From Cyanidioschyzon merolae (taxonomy: Eukaryota), in the NCBI GenBank assembly GCA_000091205.1, contig AP006491.2: a stretch of DNA of 64,000 nucleotides, one strand, 5' to 3'. The position numbers were made by a program, and so were the translations under genes. The first letter of the stretch is position 1, and the number at the start of each line of letters is the position of its first letter. Shown here piece after piece: positions 6,288 through 59,840 of this stretch. The notes beneath the pieces are model-generated. The model worked only from the letters and a program-made list of their open reading frames with translations, did no database searches and was not told the origin of the DNA.

Positions 6288-6322
<35 letters not shown>
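6288..6322. repeat. (ACGC)n tetranucleotide microsatellite, about 8 units
   Basis: cgcacgcacgcacgcacgcacgcacgc is visible directly. Confidence 0.9.
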
Positions 6323-18899: not shown

Positions 18900-19980
18900 A
18901 TGACGTAAAAATTCAAAAGCATTCTAGGATTCTCGGTCATCTTTTTGGAGTGGGTGTTCGGAATCTTTGCTGTTGGCACTCGTCACATTACCGGAATCAG
19001 GATGATTCAAAATGCCCTCGACCAAGCGTTCGTAACATATACGATATCATTATGCATTTCATACGTGCAAGCATCCACACTTCGTCACCGAAGCTTACGT
19101 GTAGCATGTTTGATACGCGGATGTTTCAAGTTTTCGATCGTGCTGTCTCCATGAAACTCATGGGCAGACCAATGCACGCTTGAGGATTTACGAGGCAGAA
19201 AGTCGACGTCGTCCCCAGACGACTTGTTCATAAGCTCACGCCGACGCGCACGGAACTTTTCATGTGAAATCACTGATTCCGTTCGAAATACAAATCCGAG
19301 TCGGTTTGTTGCCATCATTGAAGCGACCTACAACGGCGGCGCCGACGGCAGCAGCAGCAGCAGCAGCAGCGTACCTCTCACCAGATATGCTCGCCGAGGC
19401 ACCCGTCTCTTCTGTTTCCATGGGAAAAAAGAAGCTTTGACACGGACTTGAATCATTGCAGCAATCGCCGGAAGCAGAGCGTACGTCGCCGCTTTGCACG
19501 AAGGGGGCGTAGACGACTCGAAATTTCTCGACTTGGTCTCGAGCTTGGATTATCCTTTCGGTTTTCGTTTCATCATCAGCAACATCGTGTTGCACAAACC
19601 CTCTGTCGAATGAGAGAGCGTGCACTTGCACGCCAAGCGTAGACGCCGAGGACATCGCCCAGAAGCGGCAACAAAGGCGTGTATCGAGAGGCAAGTCTTC
19701 TGGACCAGTCGAGTGCATGTACGAAGCGATGAAGCGAACGTTCACGCACTCCAGTGCAGTCATCGGAGAAGGAGGACGCTGAGGTGCAGCGGATACACCC
19801 GGACACCTAACCACATCCACGTGTCAACGCCGCGACGGGCGCCCCGACGCCGTACGCAAAGCAGTTGAAAATGACAAGCGCAGCGTGGATCGCAACTTCC
19901 GCCTCTGCAAGAATTGCGTGGAAAGCAGCCAGAAGCAACAATCCCGTTACCTGAACGCTGCCATATCATCCTCCGGGAAC
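18900..19980 (+). mobile_element. Degenerate Fanzor-bearing transposon remnant (copy b); boundaries approximate
   Basis: The DNA is colinear with 48800..49960 (copy d). Examples: attaccggaatcaggatgattcaaaatgccctcgaccaagc...catttcatacgtgcaagcatcc aligns with attaccttgccggaatcaaaatgcttcgcgacgccctcagacaagc...caattcatacgtacaagaatcc, and catcatcagcaacatcgtgttgcacaaaccctctgtcgaatgagagagcgtgcacttgcacgcc aligns with cgtcatgaacaacatcgcgttccacaaatcctctaccgaatgggcgagcgttcacttgcgtgtgc. Its 3' part (about 19930..19975, ctgaacgctgccatatcatcctccgggaacg) is a decayed version of the RuvC-III coding segment. A lower-GC island. Starts about 500 bp after the HGD stop. Confidence 0.5.
19348..19370. repeat. (GCA)n microsatellite inside transposon remnant b
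   Basis: ggcagcagcagcagcagcagcagc is visible directly. Confidence 0.85.
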
Positions 19981-25166: not shown

Positions 25167-26511
25167 AAAGTGGTACACCGCAGGGCCTGTATGCACATGT
25201 AATCAAAAACATCCGGCTACAGCGTTGTTCGGTCGTTCACAGCATGATTCGGGTCTCGTGAGAAACATCTGGTGAACGACCTTTGCGGGATAATGGGGTT
25301 TCAGATAAGGTCTGTACCAAGATACGGTACAACGAAGCGTCTTGACCTGATGCAAGCGGCTTTATCATGGTCCAAATGGACAAATGGCGTGCCCGAAGTG
25401 GAATGCGCTCAAACCATGCTTCCTCCGGTGCATCATCCTGCATGAAGGACGGCATGCGTTGGAGCGTAGCGCTCGAGCACCGCACGAGACGCGCGACTGG
25501 TGCGCAGTATCTTCCAGGACTTACGCGATCCGCAACGACTGGCGGGTAGAGCTGGTGCACGGCAGAGCGGCAGCGTTCCAATTGTACTGAAGCGCGAGAC
25601 CACCCGACGGCGTACGAAGCGTCTCTACTCCGTTTATTGGCAGCGTGTGCACCCTCGCGGGAATGCTGCTTCGAACTGTGTTCCAGCAGATTTCGAAAAT
25701 GCACTGGCAACCAATCGTTCTGAGGCAACGACATCGAGTGCTGTAACAGTGGCCAAGCTATCGACACGCGCATGCAACCACGAAAGCGCACAAACGCTCA
25801 GGCGCTTCTGTGCAGAGCGGTGTACCTGCTCACGGGTCTGGGCGCTTTACTCAACCTGTCTTTAACACTTGGCGACAACTATAAACGACAAAATTACAAA
25901 CAAATGAAGGTCCAGCGGCCTCTCGTGGTGCGCGTGCACGCCTTGCACGGTGCAGCTGTGCTCGCGAGAGCGCCTTCCGGCAAACACCAGCAGCAACAGC
26001 GCAGTGCGCTGCTCTAACCTCCGTAGCCCGCTGAAGACGCGCGATCCCAGCTATCCATCCAAGACGGCCTTCGGACTCGTATCCCGTTGACGGAATGCAT
26101 GGAGGTATCGCAGGTATGCTCGTCGTAGCTGCCGCACCCAAGCGACGAACTCGAGGGCGTAGGCCGAGGCACGCGTACTCCTAGTCAGGGCTGGAAGACC
26201 CAAAAAAACAGAAATGTACAGATTACATGAGACCCCCGCCAGCGCCAGCGCCCGCGCCAGCGCCGCTCGTGACGCTGTCCCACGCTGACGCAACGTTTCC
26301 CTGCCCGAGGTACCATCGATGCGTCTCAGCGGGCATCTCGCCGCTGCGCTATGCTTATTTGGAAACGGAGAAGCAACCGCCAAACCACTCCAGAAACTCA
26401 CCCTGCCTGCTGGGGATTCTTTCAGAGAACAACCCCAGCGCGTACCCGTCGGGCGTCACGCTTGGTTCTTCAAGGCGTTCGCCAGGTGCGTGCCTTCCTG
26501 CATCACCGCTG

Positions 26512-26878
26512 CTGCTGATCTCTACTACAGATCTCTACTCATTGCTGATCTCTACTACAGATCTCTACTCATTGCTGATTGCTGATCTCTACTCATTGCT
26601 GATCTCTACTACAGATCTCTACTCGTTGCTGATTGCTGATCTCTACTCGTTGGTGATTGCTGATCTCTACTCGTTGCTGATTGCTGATCTCTACTCGTTG
26701 GTGATTGCTGATCTCTACTCATTGCTGATTGCTGATCTCTACTCATTGCTGATTGCTGATCTCTACTCATTGCTGATTGCTGATCTCTACTCGTTGCTGA
26801 TTGCTGATCTCTACTCGTTGCTGATTGCTGATCTCTACTCATTGCTGATTGCTGATCTCTACTCATTGCTGATTGCTG
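26512..26878. repeat. 24-bp tandem array, about 15 units (ctgattgctgatctctactc[a/g]ttg), preceded by a few 30-bp variant units
   Basis: Near-identical contiguous units are visible directly. The period is a multiple of 3, so the ORF stays open on both strands ((LIADLYSL)n on plus, (SRDQQSAM)n on minus). A 12-bp direct repeat, ctgcatcaccgc, flanks it at 26498..26509 and 26882..26893. Confidence 0.9.
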
Positions 26879-27441
26879 CCGCTGCATCACCGCCGGGGAT
26901 CGGCGCCGATTGGCCGACGCGATCGAGAGGCCGTCGAGTCGGCGCCGTCGACCGCTCCTCCCATACCTCCTGCAACGCCTCGTGGTACGCCTCCATTGAG
27001 GTTCAACACACAGGACGCCATTACGCTTGACAGCTTGGGTAACGAAACAGTGTTCACTGCTCTAGCGGTTCGGTGTGGTGTCCACTGGTAGTAGGTAGAG
27101 CCAAGTGGGGAAACGCACACGTCTACGTTTCTGGAGGCCTTGCTCAAACGTGCGTTTTCTCGGAACGCAGAGGCGCTCTGGGGTACGACCAGCGCAAGCC
27201 TTTCCTGAGGTTGCCCGCGGTGCCGGGAGCGCGCTCGACACACGCGTGCGTCTGAACGCACGACAACGGGTAAGTTTCGCGGAACCTCGGTGTGTGGTGA
27301 CGGGAGCTGCTGCGGCACTGGAGCGCCCGGTCACGAGGCTTCGAGGACCTGCGTCTGCGTCAGGAACCTAACTGGTGTTGGTGTTCCGCGCGGAGGGCGC
27401 CTGACTTTTGCGTCAGTCCGTCAGTCTGTTAGTCTGTACTC

Positions 27442-34049: not shown

Positions 34050-36419
34050 TCAACGATTCTCGGCAGGTCCTTGACGCCGCATGTGGCGCTCGTAGTAGAA
34101 TTGCGCAAAGGTAGGCAGCACTCGAGAGGAGACCACGGATGAAAGCGAACCTCCAGGTTCCGGATGCGTACACGACGCACCCGATGCCTGGCGGAAGACC
34201 AGCGTTAGCTCATTTAGGAGCGTTTCGTAGCGGTAGCGAACACGAATAGATGGAACATTGGACTTGTGGATATCGTTCCCCTGGTCATTGGTGAGAAACC
34301 AGCGCGGTCCGAGCCAGTGCGCCTTCACACAGGGCTCGAAACCGCTCTGTAGCGCAGAGTTTCGCGCCAGTTCACAGAGATCCGAACTGCTCAGTTTCCA
34401 TATCTGAGCGGCTACCGAGTACTCTTCCATGAGCGGCTCGCGAGAGAAATGGAACATAAGTGGATCATCGGTGCTGAGGCTCACATTCAGCCCGCGTGCA
34501 ATAAACACTGGTACCGGTGACTTGGTGTAATCGACGAATAGCAGGTTATTGCCCAGCGGAGAGACAGCGAGACCCACTTGGCACAGGTAGTAGAGGTACT
34601 GCAGCACGGGTGCTTTTTTCAAGTTAATCCCGTGATTAATACCGTGCGCGAGGAGAAACGTCACTGCCAGGTGATCGATTTCGCCGGCTTCACCAGCATG
34701 TGGGCGGAATCGAAAGGTATGCAGGCCTCGATGCTCGCGAAACCTGTTCAAAACCCATAAATTAGCGTAGATGTAGTAGGTGAAGTATGCATAGGGCATC
34801 GGTGCTGAGGTACGCCACGCTAGCGGCGGTGGCAAGGTCAACAAGTCGATGCGTGGCTGCGGTACACTCTCGTCGTCAACGGTGTCGAAGCCTACAATCT
34901 GTTGCAGAACTGTGTGCAGCTCCGGATGCGTTGATGGATCTTGCGTGACCTCAAATAGCGGGAAGAAAATATTGTTCAACATTTCCTGAAAGGATTCCAG
35001 CAACCCTGCTTCGTGGTAGGCGCCGAACAAACGCGGAATCTGGATCAACCATCGGGCGTGATCCGAGTAGATTCGATGCTTGGTGAACCAGCGAGCAAGA
35101 CGATCCCACTCGCATCGTTTTTTGCCGTATATCGAGATTCGGGGCTCGATATGGGAGTACTTGCTCTCTACAAGATCATCGAGGACCTCGCGGGTGATTT
35201 CCGCCAGAAATCGGCCTTCGATAAAGTTGTCCGTTTTCAGAAACACTTCCCGAAGACGAGATTCTCCCAGCGGGGAATACTTGTTATTGAAGCGGTCAAA
35301 GCGCTGCACGGTACGCTTATCCGCGTGCACGTCGAGCGTGTCCACCGACAGCTCATACGCCGTGATGCCGAGGGAGTCGAACACCCCGGCCAGCGTCAGA
35401 ACGCGGCCATCGCGCTCAATCACTGGGGTGTTCGGCTCGGTCTTGAGTTTCTTCTTAATAAATCGGAGCAGGTGCTTCTGGTTCATACAGGAGCTGTGAT
35501 GAATATGCGTGTCAACCTTGCGGACATTATAAAAGTCTCGATGCGGCACTGTCATCTGCTCTAGCCGCTCTGCTTCATCGTTGAGTAGCAGATGCATTTG
35601 AAAGCGCAGAGAGAGTAGTTGCAGACGCCTGTAGCAGAACGAGCGGGAGTCGGGATCGTTCATGATCCCGATCAGCGTGTTCAGATCGTGCACGAAAAGC
35701 GCATAGGAGCCAGGAACAACGAACTTGCACGGTTCGCGGCTTGTCTCGGTTGCCGGTCTTGTGACCTCCATGATGCCATCACGAACTTCGAACGCGTAAT
35801 CGCCCTTCGCCAGGGCTGGCCCTCGAAAAGGATCATACGGTGGCGGGACGTGGATACTCAGGTCACAGTCGCGGTACGGAGGTGCCGGGTTCGCATACTC
35901 TGGGACTTCAGGTAGGTAGAGGTATTTCTCGCGGAGGGCGATAGCGTTTCGGAGCAGTGCACATACCCTGCGCTCGTCGGCGTTTAACTCGACCTCGTTC
36001 GTGATGAGTACTCGCTGAAAACCTCGCTCTGTAACCGCAGATCGGAGTGAGCGGAAGGCTTGCCCAAGTTCTCGCCGGAGTTCAAGCGTCTGTAACGCAG
36101 TCAGGGTCGCCTCGTCTACCGAGGCCGTGTTGTGCACGAGTTGGGTTCCGTCGCTACGGTCACCTGAAGTGGAGGCTTCTTGCGCTCGCAGAGGATCGGT
36201 AACAGGAACCAGCAGCGCGTCCCGTGCCCTCTCGTCGGAGCGCTCACCAGCTGCCACCGACGATTGAACTAGACGACGCCAGTGAGGAGACAGGGCGCGC
36301 TGTGCAAGAACCGGTTCGGCATCCTCCTGTTCAAGGTCATGAATCCAAACGAGCTTGCCACTATCTCTACCAAATGGTTCCATGAGCGTGCACGTGCTCC
36401 AGTTCCCCGACACCGTCAC
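34050..36419 (-). CDS. AMPD: AMP deaminase
   Basis: 789 aa. It has the metal-binding motif VDTHIHHSSCMNQKHLLRFIK, SLSTDDPLMFHFSREPLMEEYSVAAQIWKLSSSDLCELARNS, and a long central block colinear with AMPD/Amd1. Start is either Met1 (36419) or Met13 (36383); Met1 overlaps the tail of the Fanzor ORF. Confidence 0.9.
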   Translation of the reverse strand: MTVSGNWSTCTLMEPFGRDSGKLVWIHDLEQEDAEPVLAQRALSPHWRRLVQSSVAAGERSDERARDALLVPVTDPLRAQEASTSGDRSDGTQLVHNTASVDEATLTALQTLELRRELGQAFRSLRSAVTERGFQRVLITNEVELNADERRVCALLRNAIALREKYLYLPEVPEYANPAPPYRDCDLSIHVPPPYDPFRGPALAKGDYAFEVRDGIMEVTRPATETSREPCKFVVPGSYALFVHDLNTLIGIMNDPDSRSFCYRRLQLLSLRFQMHLLLNDEAERLEQMTVPHRDFYNVRKVDTHIHHSSCMNQKHLLRFIKKKLKTEPNTPVIERDGRVLTLAGVFDSLGITAYELSVDTLDVHADKRTVQRFDRFNNKYSPLGESRLREVFLKTDNFIEGRFLAEITREVLDDLVESKYSHIEPRISIYGKKRCEWDRLARWFTKHRIYSDHARWLIQIPRLFGAYHEAGLLESFQEMLNNIFFPLFEVTQDPSTHPELHTVLQQIVGFDTVDDESVPQPRIDLLTLPPPLAWRTSAPMPYAYFTYYIYANLWVLNRFREHRGLHTFRFRPHAGEAGEIDHLAVTFLLAHGINHGINLKKAPVLQYLYYLCQVGLAVSPLGNNLLFVDYTKSPVPVFIARGLNVSLSTDDPLMFHFSREPLMEEYSVAAQIWKLSSSDLCELARNSALQSGFEPCVKAHWLGPRWFLTNDQGNDIHKSNVPSIRVRYRYETLLNELTLVFRQASGASCTHPEPGGSLSSVVSSRVLPTFAQFYYERHMRRQGPAENR

Positions 36420-37263
36420 ACAACAAACGCCGGTCTAAAGTCGAATGTCGCCTGCACTGTACAGTACCGGCGAGAAATTCGCCCCGGACAAGACGTCTCC
36501 AAATTATTCGCGGACGCCTCCCCGTGGTTCTCGACCGGCCACCTACTACTGCTTCCAACTTTTGCTCATATAATTCCACTTTGAGAGGTTGCCCCACAAA
36601 ATTCTCTCTTGTCCACTCTGGAGGTCTAGTCTGCAGCACTACACATGTCCTTATATTGAGAGCTGCATTAAAGTCTCGGTTCACAAACTCCATGCGTTTC
36701 TTACCGTTGGTTGTTATGCTAACCAATGCAAGGAGTCCTCGAACTTGTGCCCTCCTTTCCATCTGCTCTTCCGTCAGCTGTCCGTACTTTTTTATATCCT
36801 CAGGGCTCCTCTGGCACTTTTCCATCTCGACCCTTTGAAGTGTGCACCCCAGTTCATGATGTGTATACGATGTCCGGAACTCATCTATGGGTATCGTAAC
36901 GAAACGTTGTGCGCACTCCTTGTACGTTCGTGTCGTTGGAGCTGGCGTAGTCCTTTTTTGGGTCTTCCAGCGCCCTGCTCTGTATGCTTCTACCAGCCTC
37001 TGACTTTCATCCTCCTTCAAAGCGTTCAACTGATTGAAAACGTTCGCGAACGCGCGCCGCTTCCCACAATACAGATTCATACGCAGACTAGCCCACCGGG
37101 GCTTTGTATACTCCTCCCACAGTGCATCCCAATGCGCAACGCGAGCTTCCATGAATTTCCGGAAAGCTTCAAAGTCCGCTCCGCGGACCGTCACCTCGCT
37201 CAAAGCTTCCAGGTGCTCCTTCACCCCTGCATTCCATCTCTCAACTTTCTTCCTTGCATTCAC
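36367..37263 (-). CDS. Fanzor/TnpB-like nuclease, C-terminal half (RuvC-II region, zinc finger, RuvC-III), the most intact copy (copy c)
   Basis: 298-aa ORF. The segment ...AQRFVTIPIDEFRTSYTHHELGCTLQRVEMEKCQ... follows the TnpB pattern G..V..V.E.YTS..C..CG (RuvC-II Glu followed by the zinc finger). NRDFNAALNIRTC is the RuvC-III D-x-N-A-A-x-N-I signature. By comparison with copy a, which stops after ...VAGRST, the native stop is probably near 36520, and the last 50 or so codons are fortuitous read-through. Confidence 0.7.
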   Translation of the reverse strand: MNARKKVERWNAGVKEHLEALSEVTVRGADFEAFRKFMEARVAHWDALWEEYTKPRWASLRMNLYCGKRRAFANVFNQLNALKEDESQRLVEAYRAGRWKTQKRTTPAPTTRTYKECAQRFVTIPIDEFRTSYTHHELGCTLQRVEMEKCQRSPEDIKKYGQLTEEQMERRAQVRGLLALVSITTNGKKRMEFVNRDFNAALNIRTCVVLQTRPPEWTRENFVGQPLKVELYEQKLEAVVGGRSRTTGRRPRIIWRRLVRGEFLAGTVQCRRHSTLDRRLLCDGVGELEHVHAHGTIW

Positions 37264-40000
37264 AATACCGGATTCTCGATAGCATCTCGATCTCGAGAAA
37301 TCTCAAAAGACGCATATCTTTCTGGCGCACGTTACCGTCAATGCCATCTTCCGCACGCTTCGGTTCAGCGACGGGTATGATATTCGTGTGTCCGGGGTCC
37401 GCGCCAATGACAACGTCGTTATCCTCTACCTCCTGCGCGGCAGGACCCGGCTCCTTCTCATCTTCTTGTTTCGCCGCACCAACGATAACGTCGTTATCCT
37501 CTACCTCCTGCGTCGCAGGATCCGCCACCTTTTTTTCTTCATGCTTCGCCGAAGCGCAACTGAGGACGGAACTGGACGATCCACCTTCAAGCGCCGATAG
37601 TGTACGCACATGGCTACTCCATCGGTTTCGATCATCCCAGTGAGTACCTTTTGGTTGCTCGTCTAGACACGTATGAAATCGAAGGTATTCGTCCAATGCA
37701 ATTCCCGGTTTTCGCCCGTTAACTCCTTATCGCTGACATCGAACTCCGGACTGATCTTCTCCATGATGCTGTAAAGGACTCCGGAGTCGATTGAGACAGA
37801 GTGCGGCTTGATGTTGCACAACGGAACGACGTTGAAGCGCTTACCCATTAGGAAAGCCTTCCGTTCCTCCAACCCCGTCATTTCGTTTCCTGACTCAGCT
37901 TCATCTCCGCATTGCGTTCGAGTTCTCGGTTCAGGAGCATGAAATAGCGCAGGATGAGGGATACCATTTTTTTCATCTTTTTTCGTATATGATACGTTTT
38001 CTGCTGGATTTGACAAGCCCCATGACTGCACGGTGCTCTTGAATAGCCGCACGGATCAAAGTAGCTTCATACTTTCTCCCGCGTGATATCTTCTTGACGA
38101 CGAATTCGATCTCCTGTCCATTCTGGCGATCGCTCGTGATGCCATTGATGATGGTCCATATCCCCTGGCGGGAGAGGCCCAGGTACGTTGCAAAAACGGC
38201 GCATATCATGAAGCGTTTGAGTTTCATGGTCATACGATTCTTCAGGTTCGTGAGGTACTTGATCGTCCCGTATGAGTTAATATCTGCGACACTCTTGTAT
38301 AGAGTACCGTCGAAGCGGTATTCGGGGTGATTTTCGTGGACGGCATGCACTCTCTCATTTCTCCTCGACGCTTCCCCTGTGCCAAGCATCAGGTGGCGAA
38401 TAAAAGTCTTGTTGAAAAATTCTCTCGGAACCTCGAATGTTTTGATGTCCGTCATATCGCGATACATCTCCCTCGCCATATGCATCAGTTCAGAAGAAGT
38501 CTTTATAATTCTCAAGGAGTACGACTCGACACGGTTTCTGATGGCCTCTCGTAACTTTTTTTGTATGGATCCTTGGTATACTTTAGAAGACAGGCTTTCG
38601 CTACCATCTCATCTTACTGTCGCCTTCGTGCAGCTCCTTCATCTTCGCCTGCTCCTCTGGACTCGGCAATGTTTTTCGTTTTTCTCTGGCAGCTGGCGAC
38701 ACCGACCCTTCGAAATCCTCCACTTCCATATCAATGACTTGCTTATATTTTTTGGAAAAGAACGCACTATGAACGCTTCTGCTGGAAAGCGCGAAAACCC
38801 ACTGAGCACACTAAACTGAGGTTTGAAAAACGATCGGATTCAAAGACTATACTTTGCTATGACTTGAACGCGAATACATCTTGGACGCTATCGTAACACG
38901 CTGATGCCGCGATGCCATGCCGTTTTCGTGCATGCGACAAGTCCCCGGCAACAGTGCACGCTCCGAATGCCGCATCGCGTGTTTCCAGTCAAGTCTACGA
39001 ATAAGAAGGATGGCGCTTCCATTCGACGGCTACATGCGCTTCTTGTCTCATTTTTTGTCTGACAAACCGTTTACATTTACCATGGATCCTAGATTGCGGG
39101 ATGGGTATTGGCTTTCGGGAAAGTGTCCATCATGCTGTACCCTACGTCAAATGTCTATGACCTGTTCTCGGATATACTGGTTATTTCGCACATTCTGTTG
39201 TGCGCCGACTACCTGCTCCGAGCGCCGCCCCCTGCAGCGCGCACACTGCTGGTACGGATGCAGTATGGAAGCAGCACGGCTTTGGGATGCCGCTGAGCGC
39301 GTCAGCTCGAAGCGCTGTTCACCTACAACGGGGTCGGAGTGCATAATCATTCTGGGAGCCTGCAAACCGCGCAGGTAGAGCTTCTGCGTGCGGCAATGCG
39401 ATGCGATATACTAGGAGTCCAGTGCAACCGGGGCGACGCCCAGACGCAGCCTACCTGCCCCTAGTCCCAGAGTGAATTGCGTTGCGGACGAGCTGCACAG
39501 ATGTCACTACAGCACCCGCCACTGCAGAGGAATACGGAGCAAAAACTCCGGTGGACTCGTCCAGCTCGCGGGATCTTCCGCCTAGAAAATAATCTTTTGA
39601 AAAAACGGAAAGTTTTCCCCCTTTCGAACGCTGACGATGCAGTTCGAACGAAATTGTTATCAAGTTGCTATTTCATGGTTGGTTTCTATCCCTTTTTCCA
39701 TAGCGCGGTCGATACCCGAACTTGGGATCGCCTCGGCATGCGAACGGTGGCATCGGGAACCGCTGGCCTGTGTAGACATTTTGTCAAATAAAAAACACAA
39801 ACGCTCCCTGGATCCTTCGAAATCCAATTCCCGATACAAATACTTGTTCGACTGCGGTGCATTGCAGTACTTGCTTGCAAGGAGCATTCGTTACTTTCCG
39901 AGACGCTTCCAGTAACCGCGCGACCGGTGATTCTGGTAAGGTGCATCGGGTGCTGACCCTGAATACCCGGACCCCCGCGCGAATGGCCAGGTGCTGGCAG
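36420..40000 (-). mobile_element. Fanzor-bearing transposon (copy c), lower-GC island; boundaries approximate
   Basis: GC content drops visibly between about 36500 and 40500. Consecutive minus-strand ORFs in shifted frames (37241..37696, 37663..38052, 37973..38515) lie upstream of the RuvC ORF, indicating introns or decay of the N-terminal half. It carries modules repeated elsewhere in the window: 39330..39800 matches 47860..48290, and 39050..39140 matches 60330..60440 (reverse complement). It also has a tandem peptide repeat, QEVEDNDV(I/V)(V/I)GA. Confidence 0.5.
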
Positions 40001-40825: not shown

Positions 40826-43651
40826 TTGTGTTGCCGAACTTCGACTGGCTCGCGCTGGCGCTTTAGCCGGGCAGACGCACCTATGCGTTTGGCAGTTCTA
40901 GGCTTGCCCTCACCGAGCTTTGGAATGGAACTGGAACTCGCTTTTGTCTCTAATATACTTGGAACGGCGAGAGTAGGGAGTTTTCTAGGCAAAGACGCGA
41001 AGGACGCGCTCCTTCTGAATAGCCGGCGGTGGGTTCCGCACGCGAAGCGGTTTCGTTTAGGTCGGCGCACCGCGCTAAGCCTAGAGAGCAAAGGCAAGAA
41101 GCACCACGATAACACTGGTGCCTTTACTTCAGGATCCGCTCGTCGGGAGCTTAGTGGTCTAGCGGCAACGAGCGACGGAGGCTCATCTGGTTCTTCGTTC
41201 GTCAGCGAGGAAGAAGTTGAGGTGTTGGAAGGGTTCGAAGACCTGCTCCTAACGTCCAACAAGAAGAAAGTGACTCCGAAAACAAAACCAGCACCCACCT
41301 CTGATGCAAAGGCCCAAGCTTCTGTTAATGGGTTTGAGGTCCTCGAAGGATTCGAAGACCTTTTCACGGAGCCGAAGAAGGGGAAAAAAGGCAAAAAATC
41401 AAAGGCACAAGCTTCAACCGTGACTTCGGCGTTGCGCGCTGCAGCACCAAATGAAGGCTCAGTGAAAGCGTCGCATTCTGAAAACGCAGAGCACGGGATA
41501 GCAGCTCCGGCGGACCCTCAACGCAACGGAAAGTTAACTGCTACTACTGGTGAGACCGTGCACTCTCTTGAGAGGGAAACTCAGCGACCCGCTGCAGCCA
41601 CGGAAGAATCGAAACAAGCTTCCAGGACCGTTGCTACGGGCGACTCGCCCCCGCTGGAGACAGTGCTGGACGCGGGCTCGGAGGAATCCTCGGAGCAGGT
41701 TCCGGAAGATGATGTGAGCTCCGGAAACAATGCTCGCCAGAAGCGCCAGTCCCAGAGCACCTCAACTGCCGCGGGGCGCGCCGCCCTCAACCTCAGGGCC
41801 GACGCCGGTGATGACATCACGGCCGAGTCAGTGTTCCTTCGTCTGGAGGATGTTAGTGTGTCATATCGGGGAGAGGTCGTTGTGAAAAAGGCAGAACTTG
41901 ACATTCGCATGGGCGATCGTATTGCTATTGTGGGAAAGAACGGTTCAGGGAAAACGTCTCTTTTGCGCATCCTGGCTGGACTGCAAGAGCCGACAAAAGG
42001 CGAGGTTGTGCGCTCGCCCGCAGGCCTGCGTGTGGGTTACCTGCGTCAAGAGTTCCATGACGACCTGAATCCGACGCGAACGCTACGTGAGGAACTCTCC
42101 TCTGCTCTGACGGAGGCAAATGCGGCACTCGCCCGATATCACGAGCTGGAGAACCAAGTCGCCAGCGTTGCGCACGATCCCGATCGCCTCGGTGCGCTTC
42201 TGGAAGAGCTAGAGCGTGCCCGCATAGAATGCGAGCGGGTTGGTGCTTTCAACATAGATATGAAAGTGGATCGCGTAATGGCCGCTCTGGGCTTCGTCTC
42301 CGGGGATGATCCCGAGAAGCTGGTTGCATCTTACTCCGGTGGATGGAAAATGCGCATAGGCCTCGGCAAAGTGCTTCTCCATGAGCCGCACGTGCTGCTT
42401 CTCGACGAACCGAGCAACCATCTTGATGTAGATTCTGTGGAGTGGTTGGAAAACTACCTCTGCTCGCTCCCGATTCCCTTAGTGATTGTGTCGCATGACC
42501 GAGAATTCATCGACCGTGTATGCAACAAAGTGGTCGAGATGGAGCGAGGTGAAACTGTGAAGTACGTCGGTAACTATACGAGCTTCCTGAAACAGAAAAA
42601 AGAGCGTATAGCTGCATGGCAAGCCGCGTATGAACGCCAGATGAAGTACATCGAAGAGCAAAAGGCGTTTATCAACCGCTTCAAGAACAATGCTGCAAGG
42701 GCATCGCAAGTCAAGAGCCGTGAGAAAGCACTCGAGAAATTCATGGCCGCGGAGAAGTTCGTGTCGCCACCGCCAGGCAACGAAAAAATGCTTCGTTTCC
42801 GCTTTCCATCGGCGCCACGTTCGGCTCGCGATTTGGTTTCGCTTCGCTCGGTCACCATGCGCTACGGGGACCGTACGCTCTTCCGTAATGTCGACTTTAC
42901 GATTGAGCGGGGAGATCGCATCGCCGTTGTGGGCCCGAACGGCAGCGGCAAGTCGACGTTGCTTCGGCTGATCTGCGGGATAGAGGCTCCGACAGAAGGC
43001 GAGGTGGCGATCGCCGAGTACGGTACCAAGATCGCATACTTTGAGCAGAATCAGGCAGATGCACTGGATATGAACCTGACGATCCTTGAAACAATGCAGC
43101 GAGCCGCGCCGGCAAACATGCCCTACGAGCAGATTCGTGCGCTTCTCGGACGATTTCTGTTCAAAGGCGATGCAGTGGAGAAGAAAGTTGGTTCACTGAG
43201 TGGCGGCGAAAAAGCGCGCCTGGCGCTTTGTAAGATCCTGCTCGAGCCGGCGAATCTGCTCGTTCTCGATGAGCCAGGCAACCATGTGGACATTGAGGGT
43301 CGCGAGTGCCTCGAGGAGGCTCTCCAGGAATACGACGGTACGCTCGTTATCGTGAGCCATGACCGCTACCTTGTGTCTCAGGTGGCCACGAGTGTCATTG
43401 CCATTGAAAATGGCAAACTGGAGTTTTATGATGGTGATTATCGCTTCTACTGTGAACAGCACCTGGAGTTGCGCCAGCGACTTCGCGAGCGCGCCATCGC
43501 CGGTGTGACCGACATCAAGTCGGCGCCAGTGGAGGCCATGGCGCGGGCGGGTGACGGTCAGTTGCACGAAGAACGCAAGAAGACTTTTGGCGGATCTGGT
43601 GTGAAGAACAAGAAAGACAGCATGATGAACTCAAAGCGCTGGAATGACTAA
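40826..43651 (+). CDS. ABCF: ABC-F family ATPase with two ABC domains and no transmembrane domain, plus a long low-complexity N-terminal extension
   Basis: 941 aa. Two Walker A sites are present (GKNGSGKTSLLRILAG and GPNGSGKSTLLRLICG). Two signature motifs are present (LSGGWKMRIGLGKVLL and LSGGEKARLALCKILL). Walker B and H-loop are also present. The linker between cassettes is typical of ABCF/EttA/Uup-like proteins. The N-terminal 330 or so aa are Ser/Lys-rich with a duplicated VLEGFEDL motif. Confidence 0.85.
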   Translation: MCCRTSTGSRWRFSRADAPMRLAVLGLPSPSFGMELELAFVSNILGTARVGSFLGKDAKDALLLNSRRWVPHAKRFRLGRRTALSLESKGKKHHDNTGAFTSGSARRELSGLAATSDGGSSGSSFVSEEEVEVLEGFEDLLLTSNKKKVTPKTKPAPTSDAKAQASVNGFEVLEGFEDLFTEPKKGKKGKKSKAQASTVTSALRAAAPNEGSVKASHSENAEHGIAAPADPQRNGKLTATTGETVHSLERETQRPAAATEESKQASRTVATGDSPPLETVLDAGSEESSEQVPEDDVSSGNNARQKRQSQSTSTAAGRAALNLRADAGDDITAESVFLRLEDVSVSYRGEVVVKKAELDIRMGDRIAIVGKNGSGKTSLLRILAGLQEPTKGEVVRSPAGLRVGYLRQEFHDDLNPTRTLREELSSALTEANAALARYHELENQVASVAHDPDRLGALLEELERARIECERVGAFNIDMKVDRVMAALGFVSGDDPEKLVASYSGGWKMRIGLGKVLLHEPHVLLLDEPSNHLDVDSVEWLENYLCSLPIPLVIVSHDREFIDRVCNKVVEMERGETVKYVGNYTSFLKQKKERIAAWQAAYERQMKYIEEQKAFINRFKNNAARASQVKSREKALEKFMAAEKFVSPPPGNEKMLRFRFPSAPRSARDLVSLRSVTMRYGDRTLFRNVDFTIERGDRIAVVGPNGSGKSTLLRLICGIEAPTEGEVAIAEYGTKIAYFEQNQADALDMNLTILETMQRAAPANMPYEQIRALLGRFLFKGDAVEKKVGSLSGGEKARLALCKILLEPANLLVLDEPGNHVDIEGRECLEEALQEYDGTLVIVSHDRYLVSQVATSVIAIENGKLEFYDGDYRFYCEQHLELRQRLRERAIAGVTDIKSAPVEAMARAGDGQLHEERKKTFGGSGVKNKKDSMMNSKRWND

Positions 43652-44599
43652 GAACATTGTCAGGTCCGGTGTAAACGTCCGTTTTCTTCAAAAGGTACGC
43701 CCGGAGGGAGCGTTTTACGAACCCTGTGGCTCTGGTCGTCATGACGCCCATGCTCTGCTCAGCATCGTTGACGCATTCGCAGTTTGGGGAGCACGCTGTA
43801 CGGTGCTGGAACGGGTACCCGTGTTACCGCAGCTTGAGTGCTTGCTCGGTACGTCGAGCGCTCGCGCAACACCACAGCAACACACTCTGCATCTTCGATG
43901 AAAAATGTTGCAGCTTGTTTCCCTCATAGGACTTTCTGGAGGAATCTCTGGTGATGTTCACGCATCTTCTGTGACGAACAAGCAGGGAATTCGCAGCACC
44001 TGCATCCGAGCGTCTGCTGCATGTATGCTGGTGCTCGCACAGCGACGGCAACAGTGTCGGTGCGTCTCGGGCCGATGCCCCCAGTGGTACGGCAGAGTCG
44101 TTCTGTCTTCGTGCTGCTTCTGCACCGGCGCTAGCGGTACTATTGTGGATGCTTCTGGAAGACTCGGCGGGTCATGGAACATGGTTAGTGACCAGATTCT
44201 CCGTGGGGAAATATTGGGCAGTTCAATTTGGAGCTCGGATGTATATCGACAGATGCTTTTCCAATCGCTGATATCAAGCAAGCCGTCGGGGATCCCTAGT
44301 CAGTACACACGTTCGATCAAAGGAAACGTGAACGGCATCACTGCTGTGCATCCAAGTCGCGTGCGCCCGCGATCAGCAGCGCACATCTGCCTTCCTTTCA
44401 GTACTATACGCAAGGCATTGTTTCATGCCAGAGGATGCGCTCAGATTCATCATGGAGAGGATCTACATGTACAGTTGCAGTCAACTACGCAGCGCTCGGG
44501 TTCTACTGACGACTGACCAGCCTGCTGGCTCGCATGCAGTCGACATGTCGTGGCCCGTACCGCACCGTGCGGTCATTGGTGCGTCCCCGGGGCGATGCC

Positions 44600-45375
44600 C
44601 GCTGGCGCCATCGCATCCTGCCCCGGCTCCCGGAACCCATAAACATCCTCTTTGAATGCGTGGAGCGTTCAAGGCGTCGTCTGTTTGTCACCAGTTTTTC
44701 AGGGATGAAGCGCAGCCGCCCATTGCTGCAGGAGCCGAGCACAGTCAACATCCTCTTTGAATGCGTGGAGCGTTCAAGGCGTCGTCTGTTTGTCACCAGT
44801 TTTTCAGGGATGAAGCGCCGCCGCCCATTGCTGCAGGAGCCGAGCACAGTCAACATCCTCTTTGAATGCGTGGAGCGTTCAAGGCGTCGTCTGTTTGTCA
44901 CCAGTTTTTCAGGGATGAAGCGCCGCCGCCCATTGCTGCAGGAGCCGAGCACAGTCAACATCCTCTTTGAATGCGTGGAGCGTTCAAGGCGTCGTCTGTT
45001 TGTCACCAGTTTTTCAGGGATGAAGCGCCGCCGCCCATTGCTGCAGGAGCCGAGCACACTCAACATCCTCTTTGAATGCGTGGAGCGTTCAAGGCGTCGT
45101 CTGTTTGTCACCAGTTTTTCAGGGATGAAGCGCCGCCGCCCATTGCTGCAGGAGCCGAGCACAGTCAACATCCTCTTTGAATGCGTGGAGCGTTCAAGGC
45201 GTCGTCTGTTTGTCGCCAGTTTTTCAGGGATGAAGCGCAGCCGTCCATTGCTGCAGGAGCCGAGCACACTCAACATCCTCTTTGAATGCGTGGAGCGTTC
45301 AAGGCGTTCGTCTGTTTGTCACCAGTTTTTCAGGGATGAAGCGCAGCCGCCCATTGCTGCAGGAGCCGATCTCAG
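44600..45375. repeat. 105-bp tandem array, about 7.4 near-identical units
   Basis: The unit is catcctctttgaatgcgtggagcgttcaaggcgtcgtctgtttgtcaccagtttttcagggatgaagcgc[c/a]gccgcccattgctgcaggagccgagcaca[g/c]tcaa. Copies start at 44644, 44749, 44854, 44959, 45064, 45169 and 45274. The period is 35 codons, so ORFs stay open on both strands (plus strand: ILFECVERSRRRLFVTSFSGMKRRRPLLQEPSTVN repeated). Confidence 0.9.
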
Positions 45376-46866
45376 CACCAGTCGTACCGATTGCAGTGGT
45401 ACCCGCGTAATGCAGCTCCCCAATGTCGTTCGAGGTACACTGGGGCGCGGTGACCTCTGGGTGCCCCACCCACACTGCGAGTAGCTTATGCGTGTGTAGA
45501 CCGTGTCAAGCCGTATCAAGAGTCCTCACATAACGTGCTTTTTGAATGTCAGCAGTTGGTCCACATGACCAGGCGCTGCCTTGTCGCATAAACGAGAACT
45601 CGGGGATGTCTTCTGGGAATTCGAGACGACTTCCACGAGAATCGCGTTTGTTTGGTAACGAGTTAAAGGACCCATCCTGATCCGACCGCGACCACAACTG
45701 CGCTCTAGTGCCTGTATCAATCACCTCGCGCGCAGTTGTGTAGTTCCATGGCTCTGCAAATGTCACAACTCCTCGTACGGAAACGCAGCGACATCTTTGC
45801 ATGAACTTGACAGAATGCTGGATTTCCTGCTCACTCCCCGAAGCCTAGTCGTTCGGAGTGCTTTCGTCTCGTGGGCTGTGGCGCAGAGCTCTCCAAGGAT
45901 GCTCCTTTCTGAACTACACGCCCGTGAACAGCGGTGATCTCGTCCATGCATCCAGGTTGCTGACACGCTCGTGATATCCTGGGGGAAACTTTACCACTCA
46001 ACACTTCGTTTTGCGCACCGATCTCAATACCAGTGAGAACAATGCTGATGCGCATCAACAGAGCGCAAGGCAGCCTCCTGGTCTCGGGCGCACCATCCGT
46101 CTCGTGGAGCAGGGACGCTCCAGCATCAAAACTGCTCGCCGATAATCGGGTCCGCTATGCATTTCAGCGCAGCAGTCCATTGCGTGTCGCAAATCTCAAT
46201 GCCTGTACCCGATTCAGCTCGTGAACACGAACAGAGCAACGTGCACGATCACTAAAGCCAGACAAGTGCACGCACCACAGACCAGCACGCCTCAAGGGCA
46301 CCTTTCCCTGCCAAGTCAAAAAACGTACCACTGCCCCGAATTTCCCGTACGATGCGTCAGCACCTGTGGCGAAATGAGCTCGTGAGGCCGCACGCCTAAC
46401 CTCGACGATCAGGGCTGCATCAGCGCGCTCTATCTAATGCACTGCGCCCGCACTAGTCCAGCTGACATGGCCACTCGCTCACGAGAAGCTTCACATTGCA
46501 AATGCAGCCACGCGTCATGGAGCGTCTGCGTCCCGGGACGCACACCCGAAATGCCTAGGCGCCCGCTCGCACGCGGATGCTTCCGTGTGGGCAAGATGGT
46601 GCACGCCGCAGCGCTGCCGCGTTGCGCACGACCTCCGCTTCGTGCACGACATCGCGTGAGCATACGATCACACTAGTCCATGACACAGGCAGCAAGCAGG
46701 AAGATACCCGACCGTATCACTCTTTCCTGGAGTCGATCCAAACGATCCACCCAAGACTCGCGTATTCCGCCGTCCCAGCTCGCCGTGCTAATGCACGCCC
46801 TGGAGACACCTCTCTGTGGCACGATGGACAGATCGATCGACAAGCCTCCTGCGTTTACACAGATTC

Positions 46867-47301
46867 TTAGAAAGGAAAAACATAGGTCGGCCCATGACTT
46901 CGAGTCTTGTAAATAGGCTCCCTCTTTTTCTCCCAGTCAGGAACGTGTTCCATCACTTTGGCTTCCCAGGCCTCCCACTGCGCTTTTGCTTTCAGGTACC
47001 GCTCGTCCTCTTCTGCCTGTAGGAACGGCGCTAAAGCCGCCCGCACTTGACGACGTTCCTCGAGAAGTTCTCTTCGGTGTAAGTTATAGTTGCCCATTCG
47101 CCAAAAACCGTATGCCATAACGAGGGCGCTCCCGAGGAAGAGCGCCGTAGCCGAGGGCCCCACGTTCCGCGGCAGGTTCCGCCGAACGTCCAGCCGCGGA
47201 TAGCCGCCCGGCGGTGGACCGTCCTGCAAGTGTTGGAGCGGCGGGGGTTTTGGCGGTTCCGTCACGCCAGAGTACGGAGGCCGCTCACCAGTGAGCGACA
47301 T
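46867..47301 (-). CDS. NDUFA13: NADH dehydrogenase (ubiquinone) 1 alpha subcomplex subunit 13 (GRIM-19), a complex I accessory subunit
   Basis: PPGGYPRLDVRRNLPRNVGPSATALFLGSALVMAYGFWRMGNYNLHRRELLEERRQVRAALAPFLQAEEDERYL...VPDWEKKREPIY is colinear with human NDUFA13 ([38 protein letters not shown]...[28 protein letters not shown]...DVPDWK). Confidence 0.8.
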   Translation of the reverse strand: MSLTGERPPYSGVTEPPKPPPLQHLQDGPPPGGYPRLDVRRNLPRNVGPSATALFLGSALVMAYGFWRMGNYNLHRRELLEERRQVRAALAPFLQAEEDERYLKAKAQWEAWEAKVMEHVPDWEKKREPIYKTRSHGPTYVFPF

Positions 47302-47859
47302 GTCGAACGCGAGTTCAGGTCACTCCCTGAAGTGGGCAGTATACAGAACTCCAAAAATACCGGCCACTGTGGTTGCACGCGGTTACGCTACTCCCGCTCC
47401 ACTCTACTACCAAAGCGCAAAGCCAACTACTCTTCAGTCTTGACTTGCTTCTCAAGTAACGTCAGTGCACCGTGCCTTGCGCTTGTCCAGGGAACGTACC
47501 AAGCTCTCGCAGAAGTGTATCGCCCGTTGGGCTCGTGGCAGGAGCGCGCACGCGCACACGGCATCGATGTTTTTCCGATGACCAAATTCGTGTCCATGGA
47601 CCAGGGATCCCAGATTGTGAGATGGGTATTCGTAATTGAAAAAGCGTCCATGATGATGCACTTTACCTTCAAGTTCCATTCCTTGGCCTTCAGCTCGGAT
47701 ATACTGGTCGTTTTGTAGGTTATATTGTGTGTCAAGTGCATGCCTTGGAGCATCCACAACAGAGCCGAAACCGCTGGAGCAGATATTTCATAGAGGCAGG
47801 ACCGGATTTGCCACACCATTGACTACTTCGACTCGGGGCTTGGATCATCCGACACAGGG

Positions 47860-49960
47860 TCGGTATACACGATCATTCTGGGAGCCTGCAAATTTCGCAG
47901 ACAGACCTACTGTGTCCGACTGCGCGAAGCGATATACTACAAGTCCACTGCGACCAGGGCGATGCCCAGACGCAACATCGGCGCTCCGAGTCCCAGAATA
48001 CACTGCGTTGCGGCCGAGTTGGTCAGATCTCACTAACGCAACAGCCACAGGAGAGAGCACGAAGCACCAGCCCGGCAGACTTGTCCGGTTCGCGGGATCT
48101 TCCACCTCTAAGGTAAAGTTTCGACAAAAAGGAAACCATTTCCCCTTCTTCATGTTTGCCGTAGAGGGGCAAAGAACTCGTTCTATCGTTGCTCGTTCGT
48201 GGATAGTTTCTGATCTTTTTTCTGTGCAGTGCGGTCGATATGCGCACCTGGGAGATCTAGCACGCTCGAGGCACGACGCGCATCGACAAGTGCCACTGGC
48301 GGTGCGGCTTCATTCCATGCGCGCGTGCTGCACCGAGTTACTGGTATCGATGACCCGAGTTCGATTCTTTCATACGACACGACACGTCATCCTCTGAGGC
48401 GTACGGGGGTTTCACGCCAGCTTCCCTTTGCATCAAGGCAAGGTCAGGTGCGTATATTGTGATTCTTTCTAAATCGTATCAGGGCAGATGCACGGTGCCT
48501 GCTCCATTTTTTCACATGCAGATGGTTACCGCATCTTGAAACGGACACGTCCAAGTTTTCCAAGTGGCGTCCATACGCCCGCAATTTCGAGCGAGCAGCG
48601 AACGAACCCGCCACGGCAAGCGCTCTGGTACCACCCGCTCGATTCAGCGGTATCCAGACCAGAGCGATTCGGAGTTGAACGACAAAGACCTAGACATCAA
48701 GGCGCATCCCATAGAATAGTGTCAGATGAATATGGAACACTGAGTTGCTCGCTCCTTTCCTGAATTTCGCTCATTATCCGAAGATTTTCAGATGTTCTGC
48801 CTCGGCATTTGAATAGTTTCAAGAACGGCTTGCGCATTCATATGTAGTTCTTGGATTCTCGGTCGTTTGCACGGGGCAGGTCCAACGAAGCAACGCAGCT
48901 GGAATGAATTACCTTGCCGGAATCAAAATGCTTCGCGACGCCCTCAGACAAGCATTGGTAAAATAACCGATATCATCATCCAATTCATACGTACAAGAAT
49001 CCGCGCTTCTTTCCTGACGTGAAGCATGTTAGGGCCATGCATGCTTCAAGTTTTCCGACTCTCTATTTCACGACAACTCATGGGCGGAGCCATTTGCGCC
49101 CCCGAATGAACGACGAAAAATCACAGTCGGTGTCATCTCTCGACGACTTGTTCATGAATGCATGTTGGAAGGTCACTGAACGTTTCATAGCAAATAATCG
49201 ATTCTATTCGAAGCACAAACCTTCCTCTCCTTGTGGCCGACGACGGAATGGCATTCGAGCGCAGCAGCTTTATACCGGTCACATGAGATGCCTCCACATG
49301 CCCCCGTCGGTTCTGTTTGCGTGGAAAAGAGTTGCATCCTCGGACTTTAGTGATCGCAGCGATCGCTTCTATTTTAGGGTGCGTCAACGAGTCGCGAGTG
49401 GAGAGCTTAGACGGTTCAAATTTCTGGATTTGATCTTAAGCCAGGATTTTCCTTCCGGTACTTGATTCGTCATGAACAACATCGCGTTCCACAAATCCTC
49501 TACCGAATGGGCGAGCGTTCACTTGCGTGTGCAGCGGACTGGGTACTCGCCGACGGGATTGCCCAGAGGAAGCCCGCGTTCGTCGGGCACGACACCGGGT
49601 GCGGAATCCGAAGAAGCCACTGAGCTTAGCCTTCTGTGCCCGTCAAGGGCATGTACCGGGCGATGATGCAAGCGTTTGCGTGCCACAAGACGGCGCTCGG
49701 ACGAGCAGCTCTGCTGGCGGTCTCCAGGAACACGTGACAGCGGTCAAAAGTCACTTCTGCGATGCGAGAACCGATACTGTATAGAATAAAACGAGGAAAT
49801 GAGCACATCAAGCATAGATTGCAGCTTCCATCAGTTTGTGCAATGCACCGACAGCTGCCGAAAGTTGCAAACCGGGACCTGAACGCTGTCATCAATATTC
49901 TTCGGCTGCTGGAACGTACTCGGAGGCAAAGGGGAGACAGACGAACGCAAAGCCCTTGAC
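47860..49960 (+). mobile_element. Degenerate Fanzor-bearing transposon remnant (copy d); boundaries approximate
   Basis: 47860..48290 is homologous to 39330..39800. The shared stretches are cattctgggagcctgcaaa, gcgatatactac, cagggcgatgcccagacgcaac and tcccagaatacactgcgttgcggccgag. 48800..49560 is homologous to 18900..19650. The 49019..49465 ORF holds a decayed zinc-finger region (QQLYTGHMRC, compared with EFRTSYTHHELGC). The 49762..49959 ORF holds NRDLNAVINILRL, the RuvC-III motif. A lower-GC island. Confidence 0.5.
49762..49959 (+). pseudogene. Fanzor/TnpB-like RuvC-III fragment of copy d
   Basis: The 65-aa ORF contains KVANRDLNAVINILRLLERT, the third independent occurrence in this window of the D-x-N-A-A-x-N-I motif. 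The upstream protein context is missing. Confidence 0.5.
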
Positions 49961-58217: not shown

Positions 58218-59444
58218 GTGTGTTTGAAAATGGTTGGTAACCAAGAGAAAGAAGTTGAACGAGACCTCGTTCCATGTAGCGTCCTGGTGGTTGGTTCATC
58301 AAACACCGACTATGTGTTATCGGGACTGAATCGGCTTCCTCAGCTCGGAGAAACGGTGCTTGTACAAGGAGCTAACGTAAGTTTCCGAACCGCGGCCGGA
58401 GGAAAGTCGGCGAACGCCGCTGTCGCTGCGAGCCGGTTCTTTGCAGGTGAAGCTCAGGGCTCCGTCAGCCTCATCACCAGTGTAGGCGAGGACGAGAACG
58501 GTCGCAACGCCCTGCAGAACTATGAGCGCGAAGGCATCTTTGCGGCTCTGAGTAAGCGCTCTCCTAGTGAGGCTTCCGGAATAGCGCTCATTCTCTTATT
58601 GAGCTCCGGCGAGAACGCTATTCTCGTGGCTCCTGGGGCGAACGCGAACCTTCGACCGATGGACTTTGAAGCCACAGCAGTGGACGGGCACGGAGAGGCA
58701 CGCCTCGCAGAACTACGCGCTGCTTCAGTCGTCTTGATGCAGTTGGAAATACCCTATGAAACCGTTCGATGGGTGGCGGATGCGTTGTATGCACCACCGC
58801 TTCCCCGACAAGGGCCAGTGCTGATCGTGAACCTGGCGCCGATGGGATGCGAGTTAACAGAGCCAATGCTCCAGGAGCTCTTCTTCTATGGCCCTATTAT
58901 CGTTGTGAATGAAGTAGAATGTGGCCAGTTGCTGCGTATCCTTTGGGCAAACAGTACGGAGGTACTGGAAGAAACGCTGGAAACTGCAGCGCACGACGAC
59001 TGGCGAACGTGCCTGACGGGCTTGATGGAGCGCGCACCCGCGTTGGCTGCCATAATCCTCACTCGGGGTGCTGCCGGCGCCTGTGCAGTGCACCGTTTCG
59101 GGACGGCGTCTGGAACTGGGTCGACACTTCAGTGGATTCAGGTGGCGGCAGTACTAAGCGTTGGTTCTGCATCAGTCGTCGATACCACTGGGGCAGGTGA
59201 TTGTTTCTGTGGATATTTGGCAGCAGCGCTGGCGCAAATCCTCTACAGACGCTCAGCTCATGCCTCGCGCCATGCAGAGTCGGCAACTGCTTCGCGGAAC
59301 TTGAGTTTAGATGATGCTGATTTTTCGAGAGCGCTGCGCTACGCAACAGCAGCAGCGACGCTATCTGTGACTCGAAAAGGCGCACAGGAGAGCTACCCCA
59401 TGCGACAAGAGGTAGAGCGATTTCTGCGGCTCTGGAAAGACTGA
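58218..59444 (+). CDS. RBKS: Ribokinase (PfkB carbohydrate kinase family)
   Basis: The N-terminal substrate-binding motif is VLVVGSSNTDYVLSGLNRLPQLGETVLVQGANVSFRTAAGGKSANAAVAASR (ribokinase GG motif). The C-terminal ATP/anion-hole motif is DTTGAGDCFCGYLAAAL. Confidence 0.8.
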   Translation: MCLKMVGNQEKEVERDLVPCSVLVVGSSNTDYVLSGLNRLPQLGETVLVQGANVSFRTAAGGKSANAAVAASRFFAGEAQGSVSLITSVGEDENGRNALQNYEREGIFAALSKRSPSEASGIALILLLSSGENAILVAPGANANLRPMDFEATAVDGHGEARLAELRAASVVLMQLEIPYETVRWVADALYAPPLPRQGPVLIVNLAPMGCELTEPMLQELFFYGPIIVVNEVECGQLLRILWANSTEVLEETLETAAHDDWRTCLTGLMERAPALAAIILTRGAAGACAVHRFGTASGTGSTLQWIQVAAVLSVGSASVVDTTGAGDCFCGYLAAALAQILYRRSAHASRHAESATASRNLSLDDADFSRALRYATAAATLSVTRKGAQESYPMRQEVERFLRLWKD

Positions 59445-59580
59445 CTAGGTAGCATACGCGCACACCGATCATGATCAGAGACCGACCACGTACACCGCTG
59501 TGGAACTGCGCTCTGGTTACCCACTTGACACGATTGGGATCCCATTGACTGCTGCGAGCCCGAGGTTGCAACCCAGAGGA

Positions 59581-59840
59581 CATTGCAATGTGTGCCTAGT
59601 CGCCACGACATGCATTCGCGTGCGGGCCTATGCCCATGATCGGTGAACTGGCTTGCATATGCACAAATTCAAACATTCGATCGACATACTGCCCTTCGGT
59701 ATAGGAAAGGACATTGCAATGTGTGCCTAGTCGCCACGACATGCGTTCGCGTGCGGGCCTATGCCCATGATCGGTGAACTGGCTTGCATATGCACAAATT
59801 CAAACATTCGATCGACATACTGCCTTTCCGCATAGGTTAT
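59581..59840. repeat. Tandem duplication of a 130-bp unit, 2 copies with 3 to 4 mismatches
   Basis: gacattgcaatgtgtgcctagtcgccacgacatgc[a/g]ttcgcgtgcgggcctatgcccatgatcggtgaactggcttgcatatgcacaaattcaaacattcgatcgacatactgcc... occurs twice back to back, in the intergenic region downstream of ribokinase. Confidence 0.85.

Follow-up and report, generated by a model that had tools for sequence, protein, structure and literature searches.

Tandem Repeats as Minisatellites and as Genes

The intergenic minisatellites, or VNTR loci, of eukaryotes are built of units of about 10 to more than 100 bp, and their copy number is altered by slippage, unequal exchange, and gene conversion. Identical units in the interior of an array together with divergent units at its edges are the usual mark of slippage or unequal exchange accompanied by homogenization. 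Coding tandem repeats, such as those of yeast adhesins, the "megasatellites" of Candida glabrata, and solenoid proteins, keep their reading frame across alleles, lie in recognizable genes, and have homologs.

The genome of Cyanidioschyzon merolae has been noted for very little repetitive DNA, and carries an interspersed element of about 3.2 kb in 253 copies with a truncated WSV486-like ORF (Nozaki et al., 2007, PMC1955436). The array described here is located on chromosome 9 of C. merolae 10D, in a stretch of 64,000 nucleotides that was analyzed as a whole and is called the window below. A reading of this DNA made from the letters alone (hereafter, the sequence-only reading) had proposed that the array might be a repeat-protein gene. 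The evidence collected below indicates that it is very probably a non-coding, single-locus minisatellite of the VNTR type, situated between convergent genes for an ABC-F ATPase and GRIM-19. A survey of the literature on tandem repeats and minisatellites of C. merolae returned nothing about this locus.

Structure of the Array

The array (Table 1) was found by TRF with a period of 105, 6.9 copies, 98% matches, a score of 1398, and zero indels counted. It measures 728 bp, has the same GC content as its surroundings (0.556), and has housekeeping genes on both flanks. An array of near-perfect 105-bp units is far beyond chance expectation, and indeed a 41-mer taken from the unit occurs six times in the window against zero expected; in this respect the sequence-only reading was correct. 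When listed in register, six 105-bp units start at 44642, 44747, 44852, 44957, 45062, and 45167, and a truncated seventh unit, starting at 45272, departs from the consensus after about 97 nt. The array had been described as starting at 44600 and comprising seven and a half units; its real start is 44642, as the preceding 105 nt (44537–44641) resemble the unit no better than shuffled sequence does. The 105 nt on the other side of the array likewise match the unit no better than shuffles do, and the presence of a degenerate half-unit up- or downstream was rejected on this ground.

The units differ at four substitution sites in 10D (49 A/G, 73 C/A, 78 C/T, and 103 G/C) and by one insertion, rather than at two positions as initially noticed. 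Units 2, 3, and 5 share one sequence, and divergence is greatest at the edges: 73A is found in unit 1, 103C in unit 4, the variants 49G, 73A, 78T, and 103C together in unit 6, and 73A plus an extra T at 45307/45308 in unit 7. The extra T is a 1-bp insertion and makes unit 7 a unit of the 106-bp type. According to our reading of the unit listing, the four substitutions would change T to A, R to S, and V to L in the plus-strand frame, with one being synonymous.

Table 1. Positions of the array, of the reading frames that it creates, and of the neighboring features in the window.
Feature	Position	Strand	Basis or assessment
ABC-F ATPase gene, left neighbor	40883..43651	+	Pfam ABC_tran (two matches) and ABC_tran_Xtn
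Spacer holding the array	43652..46866	.	Between the ends of the convergent genes; mean codon scores negative in six frames
203-aa ORF (ORF203) just upstream of the array	43905..44516	+	Judged non-coding
257-aa antisense ORF made by the array	44503..45276	-	Judged not a gene
316-aa ORF made by the array	44534..45484	+	Judged not a gene
Tandem array (minisatellite)	44642..45369	.	TRF, unit listing, 41-mer matches
Last unit with 1-bp insertion	45272..45369	.	Unit listing; +T type common in wild haplotypes
GRIM-19/NDUFA13 gene, right neighbor	46867..47301	-	144-aa ORF

Locus and Neighboring Genes

The array occupies a 3.2-kb spacer on which the 3′ ends of the ABC-F and GRIM-19/NDUFA13 genes converge; the stop codon of the former (43651) lies 991 bp before the array and that of the latter (46867) about 1.5 kb past its end. 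The ABC-F product is identical over 922 of 922 residues to a C. merolae 10D protein (BAM80005.1/XP_005536291.1), and the product of the GRIM-19 gene, identical in metagenome contigs, matches PF06212 (GRIM-19) there. The other large ORFs of the window are also eukaryotic housekeeping genes, including those for RAVE, AMP deaminase, SNF2, F-box/LRR, and PfkB proteins.

The spacer has no similar sequence elsewhere in the 64-kb window, and none of its ORFs displays a coding signal or a homolog. The DNA around the array evolves fast, with 17–20 SNPs/kb versus about 5/kb in genes. ORF203, for example, has neither a Pfam match nor a homolog, its codon score is -0.087 versus 0.09–0.19 in 14 real genes, and it contains 19.6 SNPs/kb versus 5.4/kb in the ABC-F gene in the same set of 17 haplotype sequences. 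Of the 12 SNPs in ORF203, nine are non-synonymous, and real genes likewise showed little third-position bias in their SNP counts. Only the contrast in SNP density was used, and the variants among array units are too few for decisive tests of the dN/dS type. A search with five concatenated spacer and intergenic ORFs (ORF203, ORF98, ORF162, ORF222, and ORF153) found no homolog, which weighs little, since the database probably omits these ORFs, Prodigal-called copies of some of them being present on JGI contigs.

In Cyanidium caldarium (JANCYW010000001.1), the gene order of the C. merolae window from 34 to 60 kb is kept: AMP deaminase, ABC-F, GRIM-19, SNF2, F-box/LRR, and PfkB. The spacer between ABC-F and GRIM-19 is, however, only 76 bp long in that species and holds neither an array nor a gene, indicating that the array is not needed for this gene pair. 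The C. merolae spacer showed no similarity to this locus or to a second, distant Cyanidiales locus. The spacers among these syntenic genes are generally 76–190 bp in Cyanidium versus about 3 kb in C. merolae, and the thioredoxin and isocitrate/isopropylmalate dehydrogenase genes found upstream of ABC-F in Cyanidium are missing from that place in C. merolae.

Array Alleles in Wild Haplotypes

Hot-spring metagenome contigs that are about 99% identical to the window bear the array at the same locus. Units of 106 bp are frequent among these wild haplotypes and reflect two distinct insertions of 1 bp: L006, L007, L012, L019, and L023, together with the contigs that have a single unit (L025, L029, and L030), carry a T added behind unit position 36, and an A has been added at the unit junction in L020. 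In L006, the plus-strand ORF that starts from the same ATG is reduced to 75 aa and the array is broken into short overlapping ORFs; in the one-unit contigs, the corresponding ORF has 81 aa with a different C-terminus. A protein that differs in frame, length, and C-terminus among haplotypes diverged by 1% would be under no coding constraint.

The copy number also differs, with 0.9, 1.9, and 2.9 assembled copies in wild alleles versus 6.9 in 10D, although short-read assemblies can collapse arrays. Many of the metagenome contigs stop at or within the array, and the 0.9-copy alleles may be artifacts of such collapse; in the 2.9-copy alleles, the units are distinguishable from one another and were seen in at least three samples. 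The evidence from 106-bp units is unaffected by collapse, because the length of a unit is independent of the number of copies. The three-unit alleles (L006, L007, and L023) have in common with 10D a penultimate unit with 49G and 73A and a last unit with 73A. Comparison of these units suggests that 10D has gained about four interior units of the consensus type relative to the three-unit wild alleles. The recent expansion or homogenization that had been proposed for the array thus agrees with the copy numbers as well as with the identity of units 2, 3, and 5 and the divergence at the edges.

A 24-mer of the unit matched four metagenome contigs, all four at this syntenic locus. No match to the unit was obtained in viral or prokaryotic collections or elsewhere in the window, leaving a viral, prokaryotic, or dispersed-element origin unsupported. 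The sequence-only reading had stated that dispersal of the unit over many loci would speak against a gene; the unit was instead found at a single locus only, and even so the gene reading is not rescued.

Coding Capacity of the Unit

Both long ORFs created by the array exist as the sequence-only reading had described them: they are rich in Arg and composed of 35-aa units, and the plus-strand ORF begins with ATG. Its broader statement that the array keeps both strands open holds only in part. The insertion in unit 7 breaks the repeat frame, so that the plus-strand ORF leaves this frame for its last ~60 residues and the minus-strand ORF is bounded at its 5′ end; as a result, no single frame is open from end to end of the array.

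On either strand, the unit leaves one frame free of stops, a feature previously regarded as less likely for a satellite. However, when dinucleotide-shuffled versions of the unit or random pieces of 105 bp from the window were tandemized, frames were open on both strands in 77% of cases with each control, cautioning that GC-rich tandem units ordinarily show such frames. Because the dinucleotide TA does not occur in the unit, TGA is the only stop codon available on its plus strand. A period that is a multiple of three, also taken earlier as a sign of coding, has a prior of 1/3, and the 106-bp units common in wild haplotypes do not preserve it; a 106-bp unit, when tandemized, has stops in all six frames.

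Codon usage was scored against the 14 real genes, whose scores range from 0.09 to 0.19. The whole plus-strand ORF scored 0.012 and the whole minus-strand ORF -0.136, both below every gene tested. The plus-strand frame of the repeat unit alone scored 0.022, the best of the six frames and at the 13th percentile of real coding pieces, whereas that of the minus strand was at the 1st percentile of real in-frame pieces. Codon usage by itself is therefore ambiguous and leaves room for coding in the plus-strand frame. Nevertheless, the plus-strand ORF had zero homologs among 5.8e9 proteins, and both ORFs appear to be absent from the annotated proteins of 10D, because the 10D proteome is represented in the protein database searched.

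Alternative Explanations

It is very unlikely that the 316-aa ORF is a strain-specific newborn protein, the expansion in 10D having given rise to an ORF that is expressed at the RNA and protein levels as an Arg-rich repeat, possibly a β-solenoid. Such a protein would agree with the uninterrupted, ATG-initiated ORF of 10D and with the top rank of its repeat frame among the six in codon score, and the best single-sequence AF2 model of this ORF is a β-solenoid-like stack with a pLDDT of 62 overall and 70–89 across the repeats and a pTM of 0.69. This model, which would be the sole hint pointing to a protein, was accompanied by four others with pLDDT of 36–52, and Foldseek searches of the PDB with it found only insignificant matches to parallel β-helices (E≥0.16, TM≤0.33). 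When random sequences were repeated perfectly, AF2 produced confident β-solenoids for 32 of 78 (Pratt et al., 2025, PMC11795689), and the predicted solenoid falls in this known class of artifacts for perfect repeats. Besides, the frame is broken by 106-bp units both in wild haplotypes and in the last unit of 10D, the C-terminus varies between alleles, the codon score of the whole ORF is under that of every real gene, homologous and annotated proteins are lacking, and no gene occupies this position in the syntenic relative. Even less credence can be given to a de novo gene in the full sense, in which the expansion would have turned the plus-strand ORF into an Arg-rich β-solenoid-like protein that wild alleles, having 106-bp units or fewer copies, cannot make; if true, gene birth through tandem-repeat expansion could be observed here. 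The 257-aa minus-strand ORF has been compared with ankyrin or TPR repeats and with the Ntox17 toxin domain, and this possibility is close to refuted. A phmmer search of 1.8e9 representative proteins did return nine proteins with E-values down to 1.8e-21, some with repeats of 33–35 aa, and Pfam Ntox17 (PF15524) reached 30.1 bits for the whole sequence, over the cut-off of 25 bits. However, the nine proteins are only 19–35% identical, and the four inspected by eye were two ankyrin-like proteins and one TPR-like protein, with periods of 33–34 aa against 35, and one anonymous protein with a 35-aa period. Their E-values are inflated because about six copies that are not independent each add the same weak match to the score, and after their sequences had been read the matches were rejected as artifacts of periodicity rather than homologs. 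The Ntox17 score is also a sum over repeats: no single stretch is significant, the best one covers positions 14–35 of the 98 profile positions (22 positions), and a query of 1.5 units had no match to Ntox17, ankyrin, or TPR at E≤10, so that assignment to this domain was rejected as well. The codon score at the 1st percentile, an AF2 pLDDT of 44.7, and the broken frame in the 106-bp alleles point the same way. Altogether, the proposal of a repeat-protein gene did not survive the lack of a credible homolog, of an annotated protein, and of a gene in the syntenic relative, combined with weak codon usage. These results also caution that perfect repeats inflate HMMER and Pfam scores as well as the confidence of AlphaFold2.

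The main rival to neutrality is a spacer or cis-acting role, in which the array would be a functional non-coding element such as an array of protein-binding sites, a termination or insulator buffer, or a repeated small RNA. We consider it improbable, though less so than either of the proteins. The array is located midway between two converging genes, the locus and the unit sequence are kept in all wild haplotypes seen, and all folds contain a short hairpin or palindrome; each unit contains an imperfect palindrome, TTGAATGC-N5-GCGTTCAA, as a candidate binding site. Retention of the array says little, however, because divergence of the wild haplotypes amounts to only about 1%, and the units tolerate indels and substitutions within a spacer that itself evolves fast. 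The absence of the array from the short spacer of Cyanidium caldarium is a further argument against such a role. As to RNA, the array had no Rfam match at the gathering score or at E≤5 and no tRNA, and folding z-scores of the unit were +0.41 to +0.77 in four registers and strands, a stability no better than that of shuffles. Inspection by eye found no pair of C and D boxes on either strand of the unit. Repeated small-RNA genes, for instance a snoRNA cluster, were thus rejected in view of the missing Rfam family and the ordinary folding. Most likely, the array has no sequence-specific function and serves at most as length-variable spacer DNA between converging transcription units.

Among the proteins inspected for the minus-strand ORF, the anonymous one (P0143, 187 aa, from the representative library) has a 35-aa (105-nt) tandem repeat, ...MCPNRQRRTIPEC..., which is about 34% identical per unit to the minus-strand unit CSNGRRRFIPEK with E=2e-4. 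This likeness is most likely due to chance amplified by repetition.

Other Repeats in the Window

Several other repeats were observed in the window. Two pairs of diverged dispersed repeats (47589–48253 versus 39068–39727, and 48911–49526 versus 18985–19629) are 66–68% identical over about 650 bp, and an inverted pair (47566–47627 versus 60455–60395) is 84% identical over 63 bp. These dispersed repeats are restricted to intergenic spacers, including the GRIM-19/SNF2 spacer that adjoins the spacer of the array, and many 5–6-kb metagenome contigs start upstream of GRIM-19 by a few hundred bp, near the start of a dispersed repeat. The pieces may belong to the 253-copy element of about 3.2 kb (PMC1955436).

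A second tandem array is present at 26500–26926 (26560–26878 by TRF, with a period of 24 and 13 copies; periods of 30 and 17 were also found). Its 24- and 30-bp units hold one frame open and produce a 267-aa ORF (26227–27030) containing (ADLYSLLI)n/(STTDLYSLLI)n, which has no Pfam match and a codon score that is high in the repeat part (0.38) but not in the unique N-terminus (-0.03). It may be another minisatellite that mimics an ORF. A 75-bp sequence is tandemly duplicated (two copies, 83% identical) at 37399–37551, inside a minus-strand ORF (37241–37696) that encodes an acidic peptide, ...QEVEDNDV(I/V)..., with a gene-like codon score of 0.146. This ORF is overlapped in another frame by the ORF at 36367–37263, which could reflect a frameshift, an intron, or a problem of the gene model. 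A 131-bp sequence in two tandem copies (59577–59836; 96–97% identical), just downstream of the ORF for a PfkB-family kinase (58218–59444), may be a very young minisatellite. Perfect microsatellites, (GCT)10 at 1015–1044 and (CGCA)8.8 at 6288–6322, were detected by TRF.

Origin and Significance of the Array

The minisatellite, as which the array is best explained, would have begun with head-to-tail duplication of a segment of about 105 bp. Its copy number would then have been altered by replication slippage or by unequal sister-chromatid exchange together with gene conversion, and these processes would hold the interior units identical and leave the edge units divergent. The allele of 10D probably represents a recent expansion, with about four extra interior units compared with the three-unit wild alleles. 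Both long ORFs are due to a unit that is by chance free of stops in one frame per strand and, in most of its 10D copies, 105 bp long. In keeping with a neutral minisatellite, the units are arranged head to tail, without constraint on the reading frame and outside genes; selective neutrality is, in our judgment, about as probable as the minisatellite itself.

The two long ORFs are therefore unfit for gene annotation. The locus could be used as a PCR-typable VNTR marker to separate laboratory strains and hot-spring populations of C. merolae. Its biological weight is otherwise small, as it adds one further minisatellite to a repeat-poor genome.

Comparison with Known Systems

Like the 253-copy interspersed element of C. 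merolae, the array is intergenic. That element is dispersed, whereas neither the array nor its spacer recurs in the 64-kb window and the unit has a single locus in the metagenome contigs; within this range, membership in the element is unsupported for want of the many dispersed copies that characterize it.

With coding tandem repeats, the array shares a long unit whose length in the reference strain is divisible by three, and a long ORF of perfect peptide repeats. It differs from them in its frame-breaking 106-bp units and in having no surrounding gene, no homologs, and no gene in the syntenic relative; a frame kept across the array and its alleles, homologous or annotated proteins, and host-like codon usage were all looked for and are not found here.

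The array corresponds most closely to the minisatellites of eukaryotes, with which it shares near-identical head-to-tail units, an identical interior with divergent edges, and indels of unit length, as well as a single locus, a copy number that appears to differ among isolates or assemblies, and the absence of coding and RNA signals. There is no essential difference between the two, the unit of 105 bp standing at the long end of their range.
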